Notes: generated by a model not told the origin, from the letters alone. Positions 9,484 through 14,311 are shown, counted from the first letter of the stretch. The stretch is 64,000 nt of DNA from Escherichia coli (GCF_003334385.1 NZ_QOWN01000004.1), one strand, 5' to 3'. Made by a program: numbers and translations.

Positions 9484-10821
9484 TTAATCTTTGCTTATTG
9501 GTGCATCTAAGGGATACGGGTTTTTATGTAGCCGGTTGTAATTCAGCGCATACATGGCGGTGATGACCATCAGGGTGACAAATGACCACATAACCTCTTT
9601 CGCTCCGGACCCCACCACGGCCCAGATGCAGTAGAGGAAGGCAATGGTAGTAACTGCCAGATATGCCGGGCGTGCTTTACCAAAGTGACCGTGTCCGAGC
9701 AGCAGTAACGCCGCACAGGTGTAAAGATATGGCACCAGTGTAAAGATGACCGAGACGGAAGAAACCAGACCGAACTCTTTGGTCGCGTTTGGTGAAATGC
9801 TGCTGAGCTGGAAGATGGTCATCAAAATACCGACGATAATCAGCCCCGCCACTGGCGTACCCGCTTTATTTACACGGGCAAAAATCGGTGGGAACAGTCC
9901 GTCATCGGCAGCGGCTTTCGCCGTTTGACCCGCCAGCAACGTCCAGCCGCCCAGTGAACCTAAGCAACCCGCAGCTGCGCAGAAGGAAACAATGGCCCCG
10001 GCGGTGTCACCCAACGCCATCCGTGCGGCATCACCGAATGGCGAAGCAGAAACGCGCAGTGCGGCATTAGGGATCATCCCCATAATCGCGGTGGTAGAAA
10101 GTACATAGCAAACGGCGGCAATCAATACCCCACCAATGGTGGCGATAGGGACATTGCGTTTCGGGTTTTTCACCACACCTGCGGCAACGGAGGCACTTTC
10201 CACACCGATGAACGACCACAGCGTAACGTTAAGGGTACTTTGAATTGCACCGAAGGTGCCCAGGCCGCTGACGTTCCATGCCGCCATATAGGTTTCACCA
10301 CGGAACCAGAACCAGCCAAATACGGCAATCCCGACGATGGGGATCAGCGCCAGCACGGTGGCAACTGCCTGCACACGGGTGATCATTTTCGGACCGACAA
10401 TGTTCAGCAGGACGAAGATCCACAGCACCACGACGCAGGTGATGGTTAATACCAATGGATCTTTCAGAATCGGGAAGAAGTAACTTAAATATCCTACGCC
10501 AATGACCACCATGGCGATATTGCCGATCCAGCAGGCCAGCCAGTAGAGGACGTTGGTTTGATAACCGAGAAACGGGCCAAAGCAGCGGCGGGCGTAAGCG
10601 TAAGAACCACCAGGACTTGGGTCGAGGAACGACATTTTGGCGTATACCATCGAGAGCCCCAGTGCACCGATAATCGTCACCAACCATCCATAAATGGCAA
10701 TCCCGCCAGTAGAGGCCAGGTTTGCAGGTAACAGAAAAACACCTGACCCCATAATATTCCCCGACACCATCAGGGTGACGGGGATTAAGCCCACTTTGTG
10801 AGCATCAGCATCCGAAGACAT
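9484..10821 (-). CDS. adiC: Arginine:agmatine antiporter AdiC, 445 aa
   Basis: Full-length ORF with ATG; APC-family transporter sequence. Confidence 0.93.
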
Positions 10822-10957
10822 AATTAAACTCCTGCGAAGGCGAGCTTCGTGACAATAAATTACGTCATATCATACGCCTGCATTCGATAGTTGAATTATT
10901 ATCGACCGGGTTATCGCTGATGCCGTTATTAATATAGCTCTTCGTTAAGGTTAAAAA

Positions 10958-11719
10958 TCAGGCGACAGTGCGTTCTCTGTGCTGACTAACATAATGCAGC
11001 GGCGTCATACCGTAGAAGTCTTTAAAGACAGAAATAAAGTACGACGTACTGTTGTAGCCGCAGGACTGTGATACCTGAGAGATATTTTTACCGTCCATCA
11101 TTAATTCATTTACGGCATAACGCATGCGGCAGGTGGTGATTATTTGGCTATAACTGGTGTTTTCGCTTTTCAACTTTTTCTTTAACAGACTTGGGCTAAG
11201 ACATAAACAACTGGCTACCATACTAAGATTCCAGTCTTTGTGAATATCGCTTTCAATAATTTGATAAACGCTGTCACTTACACAATTACGTAACATATAC
11301 ATCATTAATGAAACGAATTTTTTACTGTCGAGAAAACGGGATAGCACCGTGAATAATAATGCGCGTGTTCGTTCCTTTTCTGACTCAGTTTCTGCGGGCA
11401 TCATGCTGTGTTGCGCGGCAACGCGAAAGACGTCTGGCGTCAGGCATGGCAGGGTGAGTATGGGCGTAGCGCTACGTTGCCATACTGGTATTTGCGAGAG
11501 ATCTTTATTCAGAAACCGGAGGTAATCTTTGATGATGTCGTGACTAATATGAGCAACCAAAGTGTTGTTAAGAGAGGAGACGTCGATAATATTATTTTCA
11601 CAATTTAATAACGCCATATGGTTAGCTTTAAGGCTAATAGGTTCTTTCCCATTCACCCTTATCCAGACATCTTTTTCAGTCAATAAAACAATACAAGGTT
11701 GGTCGCTGCAAATCCTCAT
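10958..11719 (-). CDS. adiY: AraC-family regulator AdiY, 253 aa
   Basis: Full-length ORF; C-terminal AraC-type HTH. Confidence 0.9.
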   Translation of the reverse strand: MRICSDQPCIVLLTEKDVWIRVNGKEPISLKANHMALLNCENNIIDVSSLNNTLVAHISHDIIKDYLRFLNKDLSQIPVWQRSATPILTLPCLTPDVFRVAAQHSMMPAETESEKERTRALLFTVLSRFLDSKKFVSLMMYMLRNCVSDSVYQIIESDIHKDWNLSMVASCLCLSPSLLKKKLKSENTSYSQIITTCRMRYAVNELMMDGKNISQVSQSCGYNSTSYFISVFKDFYGMTPLHYVSQHRERTVA

Positions 11720-11899
11720 ACATGTACTCCTGAGTGCGAATAAAAGACCAGTTCTCGCTAAAGCAAAGCGATACCGGGAAATGGTTATATAATTGTATGA
11801 TGAATATAAACATGCATAAAAATAACGAGTTTTACTAATAGTACAAATTTTTATAGTAATTTCTCATGTACATATTTTTTTACAGGATAAATAACAGGC

Positions 11900-11926
11900 A
11901 AAAAAAAGCGCGGGGTGGGGCCGCGC
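11900..11926 (-). terminator. Intrinsic terminator downstream of adiA (GCGCGG-loop-CCGCGC followed by 8 U)
   Basis: GC stem 11908..11926 adjacent to A-run 11900..11907 on plus strand, i.e. U-tract on minus. Confidence 0.7.
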
Positions 11927-12043
11927 AAAAAGTATGACATTTTTGTTTGCAGCAATTTTTATGAAAACGTTGCCATACTCAAAAGGCCTAAGGCCAGGCG
12001 GCGTAATGTTATTTAAACAATTACGCCTTCAGCGGAATAGTGG

Positions 12044-14311
12044 TTACGCTTTCACGCACATAACGTGGTAAATACCGTCAATAATTTCAGTCCCTTCAGT
12101 TTCGTGTTCAAATCCAGGGAAATGGTGGTCCCAGGATTGCAGCGAGCGTAAATAACTTACTTGCGGACTGTTTTTATCGCCGAAGTTTTCACCAGACAGC
12201 AGCATCGGGATTCCTGGCGGATACGGGATAACTGAGTTTGCCGCGATGCGTCCTGGCAGATTTTCAATGGATACCAGTTCGACATTGTTGTCGACAATCG
12301 CGTTGTACGCTTCACGCGGGGTGACTTCCGCCACCGGCAGGCCGGAATAGGCTTCGTTCAACCGTGCTCCAGGGTTGTTTTCTTTCAGCCAGGCAAACAT
12401 GGTGTCACCCAGATCGTGAATCCCCATGTTCGCGTAAGTGTCAGGATATTGTTCAACAAGTTCCGGCATCACCTGCGCCAGCGGTGTGTTGGCGTCATAG
12501 TGGCGTTTGAAGGAGCAAAGGGTGTTAACCAGAGTTCCCCATTTCCCACGGGTTACGCCCATAGAGAACAGGAACATAATTTGGAAGTCAGTGGTGCGGG
12601 TAGGTACAATGCCGTGGCGACCAAGCCAGGCAGTGACCAGCGCCGCCGGAACACCGGTTTCTTCCAGTTCACCATCTTCACCCATTCCCGGAGCAAGGAT
12701 GCTGACTTTAATCGGGTCGAGCATACTCCAGTTATCCGGAATATCTTTGAAGCCGTGCCAGCTTTCGCCCGGATGCATTACCCAGCAGTCCTGAACGGTG
12801 GTCAGCAGTTTGGTTGGTGCGTCAGCAAAGTCATAGGTTTTGCCGGTTTGTGGGTCGGTGACGACTTCTTTGTTCCACGGTTTGAAGAACCAGCTACCGT
12901 CAGCGGTGAACTCTTTATATAGCCGCGCCATCGCCTGACGGAAATCAACCGCTTCGTCAATCACTTCCTGTGTCAGTGACAGGCCGCTGTTGCCGTCCAT
13001 CATCGACACCGCCACGTCGTTGGATGCGCAGATGGCATACAGCGGGGAGGTGGTGGCATGCATCATGTAGGCCTGGTTGAAGCGGGAGAAGTTAATCGCC
13101 CCACGACCTTCACGTACATGAATATAAGAAGCCTGTGACAGCGCATTCAGCAGTTTGTGGGTGGAGTGGGTGGCGAAAACGGTAGGACCGTTGTGATCGC
13201 CAGGTTCGCCGCGCATGGCATAGTGATCGGCATAGATCGGGTTGAAACGTGCATAGCCGTACCAGGCTTCGTCAAAGTGCAGACGATCGGAGGTTTTTTC
13301 CAGCAGATCCTGCGCTTCTTTAGCGTTATAACACACGCCGTCATAGGTGCAGTTGGTCACCACGCAGTAAGACGGTTTTTGCCCGGCTTTGTCTTTGGTC
13401 AGCGGGCTTTCACTGATTTTCTTCTGCAAGGTTTCAGGTTGCATTTCCTGCGGATAGATTGGCCCGATAATGCCGTAGCGGTTGCGGCTTGGCACCATAT
13501 AGACCGGTTTCGCGCCTGTCAGCATCAAACCTTGTTCGATGGATTTATGGCAGTTACGGTCAACGACCACGACATCGTTATCGGTCATGCAAGCCTGCAT
13601 GATGGTGCGGTTAGAGCCGGAAGTACCGACGACTACCGACCAGGAGCGATCGGCACCAAATACGCGTGCGGCATATTTTTCGCTTTCGCCAAATGCGCCA
13701 GTATGGTCAAGCAAAGAACCGAGGGAAGTTCGTTCGATGCCCATGTCGGTGCGGAACAGATTTTCACCATAGTAGTCATGGTAGAAACGTCCGGCGGGTG
13801 TTTTGGTAAAACCAACGCCGCCCTGGTGGCCTGGCGCTGCCCAGGAATATTCATGGATGTCACTATATTTCATCAGCGCGCTGAACAGTGGCGGCAACAG
13901 CTGCTGGCGGTAGCGGGTCATCGCGGCAACGGCGCGTCCGGCGATAAAGTCGGCGGTATCTTCCAGAATCCAGGCGAATTCATCGACAAGCTCCAGCAGG
14001 TCGCGATCCATTGCGGCGAGGGCTTTTTCCCGATCGCCCAACAGGAAGACCGGCACGTTTTGTTGGCGCTCATGAAGCTTACCGATCAATTGTCTGACGT
14101 TTTGATGTTCGTCCGGATGTTCCATTTGATAGCTGAACATCAGGCAGTCAATGGCTTCGTTTGAAGAGAGAATGGCAAAACCATCATCAAAGGAGGTGGA
14201 TTTAATCACGGTAACATTTTGCTGGCTTAAAGCATCTGCCAGACGCTCAACGGCGTTACCGACCCAGGTGTCTTGATGGAGAAACTCGCTTTCAACAATT
14301 AATACTTTCAT
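12044..14311 (-). CDS. adiA: Biodegradative arginine decarboxylase AdiA, 755 aa
   Basis: ORF 12044..14314 begins MMKVLIV; second ATG chosen; Orn/Lys/Arg decarboxylase fold with STHK PLP motif. Confidence 0.92.
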   Translation of the reverse strand: MKVLIVESEFLHQDTWVGNAVERLADALSQQNVTVIKSTSFDDGFAILSSNEAIDCLMFSYQMEHPDEHQNVRQLIGKLHERQQNVPVFLLGDREKALAAMDRDLLELVDEFAWILEDTADFIAGRAVAAMTRYRQQLLPPLFSALMKYSDIHEYSWAAPGHQGGVGFTKTPAGRFYHDYYGENLFRTDMGIERTSLGSLLDHTGAFGESEKYAARVFGADRSWSVVVGTSGSNRTIMQACMTDNDVVVVDRNCHKSIEQGLMLTGAKPVYMVPSRNRYGIIGPIYPQEMQPETLQKKISESPLTKDKAGQKPSYCVVTNCTYDGVCYNAKEAQDLLEKTSDRLHFDEAWYGYARFNPIYADHYAMRGEPGDHNGPTVFATHSTHKLLNALSQASYIHVREGRGAINFSRFNQAYMMHATTSPLYAICASNDVAVSMMDGNSGLSLTQEVIDEAVDFRQAMARLYKEFTADGSWFFKPWNKEVVTDPQTGKTYDFADAPTKLLTTVQDCWVMHPGESWHGFKDIPDNWSMLDPIKVSILAPGMGEDGELEETGVPAALVTAWLGRHGIVPTRTTDFQIMFLFSMGVTRGKWGTLVNTLCSFKRHYDANTPLAQVMPELVEQYPDTYANMGIHDLGDTMFAWLKENNPGARLNEAYSGLPVAEVTPREAYNAIVDNNVELVSIENLPGRIAANSVIPYPPGIPMLLSGENFGDKNSPQVSYLRSLQSWDHHFPGFEHETEGTEIIDGIYHVMCVKA

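Follow-up and report, generated by a model that had tools for sequence, protein, structure and literature searches.

How is an acid-resistance locus transcribed when the gene for its regulator lies between the decarboxylase and antiporter genes that it controls? We took up this question for the adi genes in a 64,000-nucleotide stretch of Escherichia coli DNA (GCF_003334385.1, NZ_QOWN01000004.1; this whole stretch is called the window below), in which adiA, adiY and adiC follow one another on the minus strand. AdiC brings arginine into the cell and sends agmatine out, and the decarboxylation of arginine by AdiA uses up one cytoplasmic proton. The original prediction held that a strong terminator after adiA implies three transcription units rather than one operon. 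The denial of a single operon stands (and is already published), as do three promoters, but three terminated units are not shown, and the inference from the terminator overreaches: a terminator after adiA separates adiA only. The reading that we prefer has three promoters and only two conserved intrinsic terminators, with transcripts from the adiY promoter probably reading through into adiC at a low level.

The predicted terminator itself is real. The site at 11900–11926 is the best terminator-like site between 8500 and 15500 and begins 118 nt past the adiA stop codon; six G-C pairs enclose a 7-nt loop (GCGCGG-CCCCACC-CCGCGC) and are followed by T8, with a folding energy of −9.6 kcal/mol. When the adiA–adiY spacer is aligned across four genera, the stem and T-run are invariant and the loop is variable (Escherichia, Salmonella, Citrobacter and Pseudescherichia vulneris), and the same terminator is kept in E. 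fergusonii despite the lack of adiA there. Kieboom & Abee 2006 and Brenneman 2013 are said to be the primary sources on adi transcription and the terminator in Salmonella. What the original prediction missed is that this terminator is also the 3′ end of a small RNA, AdiZ. We suggest that the terminator is conserved because it also serves as the Hfq module of AdiZ (PMC12746102).

Passages of Kanda et al. (NAR 2025, PMC12746102) describe how RNase E cleaves the adiA 3′ untranslated region (3′UTR) to yield the Hfq-dependent AdiZ (STnc1180 in Salmonella), whose Hfq module is made up of the terminator and the U-rich tract before it. According to the same passages, RNase E processing, Hfq binding and target base-pairing were demonstrated in Salmonella, where the targets were also worked out, and, at acidic pH under anaerobiosis, E. 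coli AdiZ appears as bands of ~80 and ~130 nt; from these published sizes we estimate isoform starts near 12031 and 11981. The AdiZ region of the window forms a pair of hairpins at its 5′ end, then a long stem, then the terminator, with ACUUUUU preceding the hairpin and U8 at the 3′ end, and the four-genus alignment conserves TTGCTGCAAA (11946–11955) as well as the U-rich tract. The E. coli and Salmonella RNAs are thus alike in their position in the adiA 3′UTR, in their invariant terminator and U-rich tract and in TTGCTGCAAA, but they differ in the body: E. coli has an extra 5′ hairpin (12000–12027), and the SgrS-like ptsG seed of Salmonella AdiZ is described in those passages as not conserved in Escherichia. 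A scan of 9300–14700 against Rfam 15 (E up to 1) gave no match, which leaves AdiZ/STnc1180 unconfirmed by a family model; either no family exists or the family does not reach the E. coli variant. As in other Hfq-dependent small RNAs that come from the 3′UTR of an mRNA, one terminator serves as both mRNA end and Hfq module, and RNase E brings about release. Unlike in those cases, the adiA terminator would also insulate a downstream gene, adiY, from a promoter that the product of that gene activates.

Three promoters at this locus, PadiA, PadiC and PadiY, have been fused separately to lux (Gallo et al., J Bacteriol 2025, PMC12826058), and the published reporter primers map in the window to 14509–14315, 11016–10822 and 12027–11720, respectively. 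In those fusions PadiA and PadiC were AdiY- and pH-dependent, PadiA being about eight-fold stronger, and PadiY was weak and barely responsive; in surface plasmon resonance, the purified AdiY tetramer bound PadiA and PadiC at pH 5.8–6.0, but not PadiY (PMC12826058). AdiY detects cytoplasmic acidification via His34 and His60 and switches on PadiA and PadiC (PMC12826058), and induction of the Adi system takes low pH and oxygen limitation and is AdiY-dependent (PMC12826058, PMC10746267). RNA-seq and Ribo-seq at pH 4.4 found adiA and adiC, but not adiY, to be induced (PMC10746267), and a Salmonella genotype of 2013–14, delta(PadiY-adiY-PadiC), names the promoters separately (PMC3906194). For PadiA, a consensus scan of the window offers a core promoter candidate in which TTTAC and TAC-T are kept in all six genera. 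For PadiY, a conserved alignment block contains a candidate −10 and falls inside the published reporter fragment.

The conserved internal terminator and the published independent activity of PadiY and PadiC rule out a single polycistronic adiA-adiY-adiC operon. A softer version of that model would make the hairpin only a partial attenuator, or an element of processing or stability, and let read-through from PadiA dominate. The co-orientation of the three genes with short gaps is compatible with it, and so are two statements in the passages of PMC12746102: that the intrinsic terminator "attenuates" downstream transcription, a word that implies some leakage, and that deletion of adiZ in Salmonella raises all three transcripts more than two-fold. 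The same passages, however, describe adiA mRNA as monocistronic, and the conserved stem of six G-C pairs with its T8, the strong induction of adiA without induction of adiY (PMC10746267), the AdiY- and pH-dependent expression from PadiC alone on a plasmid (PMC12826058), and the other genes that lie between adiA and adiY in Yokenella and Kosakonia all argue against dominant read-through. We regard this version as very improbable, and the single-operon model as already largely refuted.

Prediction of promoters and terminators between the genes gave a terminator between adiA and adiY, but only a marginal E. coli hairpin between adiY and adiC. The consensus scan found no terminator in this 136-bp spacer, whose folding is no stronger than that of shuffled sequence (z −0.08). 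Past the end of adiC, the hairpin that we assign as the terminator of adiC is a perfect palindrome, AAGCCAACCTTAAG..CTTAAGGTTGGCTT, with a folding energy of −15.3 kcal/mol and a z-score of −5.2. This hairpin scores as a terminator on both strands, though adiC and eptA are both minus-strand genes.

The alternative to read-through from adiY is that all three units are fully independent, adiY transcripts being stopped before adiC by Rho or by a weak hairpin with T5. Three points weigh against our reading here: in E. coli a marginal hairpin, UCAGCACAGAGAACGCACUGUCGCCUGA followed by UUUUU (−6.0 kcal/mol), overlaps the stop codon of adiY; Rho-dependent termination in the adiY–adiC spacer is not scored by the scans used; and no adiY transcript ends were found, the SMRT-Cappable-seq and Adams 2021 supplements being without adiA, adiY and adiC. 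Full independence also accords with the three separately active promoter fragments (PMC12826058), with the induction of adiC while adiY is not induced (PMC10746267), and with an insertion that demonstrates that adiY and adiC can be physically uncoupled: in E. coli Ecol_AZ147, the insertion sequence (IS) IS1A stands directly after window position 10944 (10944/10945), past the adiY stop codon but short of the PadiC box described below, separating the two genes with PadiC intact. IS1A is also listed in the adi locus of two further matches. An internal promoter with no termination, however, would account for the differential induction equally well, and the spacer folds like shuffled sequence. Furthermore, a hairpin-plus-T-run scan found no counterpart of the marginal hairpin between adiY and adiC in six other genera (Salmonella, Citrobacter, Pseudescherichia, Yokenella, Kosakonia and [Enterobacter] lignolyticus). 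A literature search for cotranscription of adiY and adiC returned nothing. On balance, three fully independent units seem to us rather unlikely.

The architecture that we prefer would work as follows. PadiA would give rise to a monocistronic adiA mRNA that ends at the conserved terminator and whose 3′UTR is processed to the Hfq-dependent AdiZ. The weak PadiY, just downstream of that terminator, would drive adiY; nothing conserved would stop the adiY transcript before adiC, and we infer probable low-level read-through into adiC because a conserved terminator is absent. PadiC, inside the 136-bp spacer and dependent on AdiY, would supply most of the adiC mRNA under acid, with its end at the palindromic hairpin before eptA. 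The adiA terminator would stop the strong, AdiY-activated transcription of adiA from feeding back into adiY, an insulation that is consistent with a low, nearly constitutive level of AdiY. Taken as a whole (three promoters, two conserved terminators and adiY read-through), we hold this architecture with moderate confidence to be correct.

The 5′ leader of adiY (11740–11777, minus strand) contains, between the putative −10 and the ribosome-binding site, a hairpin of −11.6 kcal/mol followed by a conserved GGTCTTTTAT. We dropped this hairpin as a candidate attenuator: RNAalifold gave no consensus over seven sequences, and the pairing register drawn by eye shifts between genera. SgrS has been reported to pair with adiY mRNA.

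A candidate for the site through which AdiY would act is a bipartite box upstream of both adiA and adiC, common to the two promoters in six genera, with the consensus AGCCATAAwwATA-N8-nnCGATAAC. The PadiA box hardly varies among 7 sequences from 6 genera, and the PadiC box, which begins 15 nt past the adiY stop codon, is conserved in 9 sequences from 7 genera. Each lies inside the AdiY-binding fragment of its promoter (14509–14315 and 11016–10822), the latter of which also drives AdiY-dependent lux expression (PMC12826058). For a cross-promoter test, the boxes of one promoter, taken from the other species and with their spacer masked out, gave a position weight matrix that was run over 21,000–30,000 positions: the matrix from adiC-upstream boxes ranked the PadiA box first in all six loci, and the matrix from adiA-upstream boxes ranked the PadiC box first in five of seven. 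A full-width matrix that includes the 8-nt spacer gave weaker ranks, the PadiC box falling outside the six best in the 64-kb window. Matrix scans found no comparable match in the PadiY fragment (12027–11720), which does not bind AdiY. No DNA motif for AdiY is defined in PMC12826058, and no literature search was aimed at AdiY DNA sites. On these grounds, the bipartite box is a candidate for, and probably is, the AdiY operator of PadiA and PadiC.

Some points weigh against this assignment. The columns, register and spacer masking of the box were picked after both alignments had been seen. The position of the PadiA box is also awkward: between its end and the adiA ATG there are 150–185 nt in E. 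coli, Salmonella and Citrobacter (76–78 nt in Pseudescherichia, Yokenella and Kosakonia), and in E. coli it lies about 84–145 bp upstream of the −35 candidate, which is far for a simple activator site. Finally, passages of a 2010 gel-shift study report that no AdiY binding was seen at the adiC promoter (PMC2984483), in conflict with the surface plasmon resonance result of 2025, obtained at pH 6.0; the pH of the gel shift is not stated in those passages.

Between the PadiA box and the core promoter, Escherichia, Salmonella and Citrobacter have an extra AT-rich stretch of ~75–110 bp (14381–14463 in the window, minus strand), which is absent in Pseudescherichia, Yokenella and Kosakonia. A protein that bends or silences DNA, such as IHF or H-NS, might bind this stretch, or the stretch might point to looping by the AdiY tetramer.

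Across seven genera, the adjacency of adiY and adiC is constant, with a spacer of 115–139 bp, and the link between adiA and adiY varies. The E. coli order, melR-adiA-adiY-adiC-eptA, recurs in Salmonella and Citrobacter amalonaticus, and Pseudescherichia vulneris has adiA-adiY-adiC elsewhere in its genome. In Yokenella, adiA is followed by a GerE-like gene of 176 amino acids (aa), an oppositely oriented DUF308 gene, hdeA, adiY and adiC; in Kosakonia, by a 176-aa gene with no Pfam match, hdeA, adiY and adiC. [Enterobacter] lignolyticus has hdeA-adiY-adiC, and the 10.8-kb stretch examined there contains no adiA. An Edwardsiella homologue of AdiY (54% identity) is not in an Adi context and was treated as a paralogue.

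It can be seen from these orders that hdeA is directly upstream of adiY-adiC in Yokenella, Kosakonia and [E.] lignolyticus, and a DUF308 (hdeD-like) gene is also there in Yokenella and [E.] lignolyticus. AdiY is reported, in passages of PMC2984483, to influence expression of hdeAB and hdeD in E. coli, and the hde–adi linkage may reflect an older shared regulon.

The two pH-sensing histidines are unequally distributed. In our AdiY alignment, His60 (about window 11540–11542) occurs only in the group of E. coli, E. albertii and Shigella, residue 60 being Arg in Salmonella, Citrobacter, Pseudescherichia, Yokenella, Kosakonia and [E.] lignolyticus; the Adi-context homologues all retain His34, that of E. 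fergusonii excepted. The difference at residue 60 in Salmonella and Citrobacter has already been noted (PMC12826058). In one Salmonella genome (GCA_947049495.2, from an AdiY cluster named after a Paratyphi serovar), melR and adiC are each two open reading frames (ORFs; 1273–2204 and 5902–7239), and adiA and adiY are intact. Pfam places an AraC HTH on the second melR piece and AA_permease on both adiC pieces, and the split genes suggest pseudogenes or assembly errors.

Apart from IS1A, one other insertion was seen within E. coli: in WP5-S17-ESBL-10, ISVsa5 lies 29 nt into adiC (10792/10793), and adiC has been re-annotated with a start inside the IS. ISVsa5 is also listed in the adi locus of one further match.

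A rearrangement of another kind is that of E. fergusonii GCA_020861595.1 (4461–5861, corresponding to window 9400–14520), from which adiC, the coding sequence of adiA and most of melRAB have been lost. It retains a 3′ remnant of melR, a PadiA box that has degenerated (score 30.6), a core promoter for PadiA (TTTACA, 17 nt, AATAAT), and the adiA 5′UTR, fused to a short-AdiZ region with an intact terminator. Its adiY is full-length (251 aa, 83% identity), with H34N and H60L replacing both pH-sensing histidines. Judged from its sequence, this region would be a remnant in decay or else a small RNA gene whose coding sequence is gone. A broader picture can be drawn, in which the bipartite box is the AdiY operator, adiY-PadiC-adiC forms an invariant evolutionary core to which adiA, AdiZ and the terminator are only loosely linked, and the adiA deletion in E. 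fergusonii has joined an apparently intact PadiA core to a short AdiZ; as a combined proposal we offer this only tentatively, and it may well fail in one part or another.

The locus is E. coli K-12's well-known Adi (AR3) system for arginine-dependent acid resistance, from which it differs in nothing. By megablast, E. coli K-12 MG1655 is 100% identical over 9300–14600, and this segment is found, annotated as adiA, adiY and adiC, in 5418 of 5426 complete E. coli genomes; the protein accessions annotated at the locus are those of MG1655, and so is the order of the flanking genes, with melR upstream and eptA downstream. We take b4117, b4116 and b4115 to be the MG1655 numbers of adiA, adiY and adiC. 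ORF coordinates and this annotation bear out the original prediction of three co-oriented genes with these identities and adiY in the middle (Table 1). Relative to the MG1655 strain record NZ_CP032667.1, the adi region is identical, position 3825 is T in the window and G in that record, and there is a 1-bp coordinate offset between adiA and cadA.

AdiA matches the NCBIfam equivalog NF011603 with 1704.7 bits (cut-off 1167) and PDB 2vyc over its full length (1784.6 bits, residues 1–755 to 1–755), and its pyridoxal-phosphate lysine is in the S-T-H-K motif at residues 383–386, as seen in the alignment with CadA. AdiC matches equivalog NF007929 with 892.2 bits (cut-off 574) and PDB 3lrb over its full length (969.8 bits, 1–445 to 1–445), with more matches to 5j4i, 3ob6 and 3l1l. 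NCBIfam has no equivalog model for AdiY (the best match is to GadX, 154 against a cut-off of 500), but it is annotated as adiY in the MG1655 record (WP_001217060.1), a 99%-identical AdiY cluster (P0001) carries Pfam HTH_18 and HTH_AraC, and both His34 and His60 are present in the window protein. The ORF list for 8000–16000 includes an alternative start for adiA, an in-frame ATG one codon upstream at 14314 (12044–14314, 756 aa); this ATG is not conserved in other genera, and the one at 14311 is the conserved start, with which the single start codon of Pseudescherichia, Yokenella and Kosakonia aligns.

Table 1. Features of the adi locus and of the cad genes in the window, with the basis of each assignment
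Feature	Position	Strand	Basis
Palindromic hairpin (13 bp) after adiC, before eptA; terminator of adiC	9430-9459	-	terminator scan, fold
adiC, arginine:agmatine antiporter, 445 aa	9484-10821	-	ORF, annotation, NCBIfam, PDB
Bipartite box upstream of adiC (GAAGAGCTATATTAATA-N8-AGCGATAAC), candidate AdiY operator of PadiC	10910-10943	-	conservation, matrix
adiY, AraC/XylS-family activator and cytoplasmic pH sensor, 253 aa, His34 and His60	10958-11719	-	ORF, annotation, Pfam; function from PMC12826058
Conserved ATTCATCATACAAT, candidate PadiY -10 region (TACAAT, 11792-11797)	11792-11805	-	conserved alignment block
Intrinsic terminator of adiA and AdiZ, also Hfq-binding module	11900-11926	-	scans, fold, conservation
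adiA 3′UTR (144 nt), small RNA AdiZ (STnc1180 in Salmonella)	11900-12043	-	PMC12746102, fold, conservation
adiA, biodegradative (acid-inducible) arginine decarboxylase, 755 aa	12044-14311	-	ORF, annotation, NCBIfam, PDB
PadiA core promoter candidate: TTTACA, 17 nt, GATACT	14352-14380	-	consensus scan
Bipartite box upstream of adiA (TATCAGCCAAAAAAATA-N8-GTCGATAAT), candidate AdiY operator	14464-14497	-	conservation, matrix
cadA	30261-32408	-	annotation
cadB	32488-33822	-	annotation
cadC	34187-35725	-	annotation

The cadCBA genes (cadC-cadBA, AR4) had been placed about 16 kb away in the same orientation, and this agrees with what we find: they are on the same strand, the adiA start and the cadA stop being 15.95 kb apart. 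Pairwise alignment makes AdiA and CadA paralogues (36% identity, E 1e-163), and likewise AdiC and CadB (38%, E 3e-100), so that the two systems share a decarboxylase, an antiporter and the logic of proton consumption plus antiport. The description of cad as a paralogous module holds for these two proteins, but not for the gene order or the regulator family. The cad order is regulator, antiporter, decarboxylase, with cadBA forming one operon, whereas adi has its regulator wedged in the middle; and CadC, which resembles ToxR and sits in the membrane, is unrelated to AdiY, with no similarity between the two in a pairwise comparison.

The position of adiY between adiA and adiC has been called an "unusual genomic arrangement" before (Brameyer et al. 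2022, Commun Biol), and the arrangement, the individual promoters and the adiA terminator have all been published already, so that the original prediction as stated adds nothing to the literature. What is corrected here is a point of logic: one terminator does not yield three transcription units. The candidate operator, the adiY–adiC core, the IS insertions and the E. fergusonii remnant are minor leads and not discoveries. Among them, the operator is a modest, testable lead for work on AdiY, and E. fergusonii is a modest lead of another kind, a natural variant in which the structural genes are gone and the regulator and a small-RNA remnant persist.

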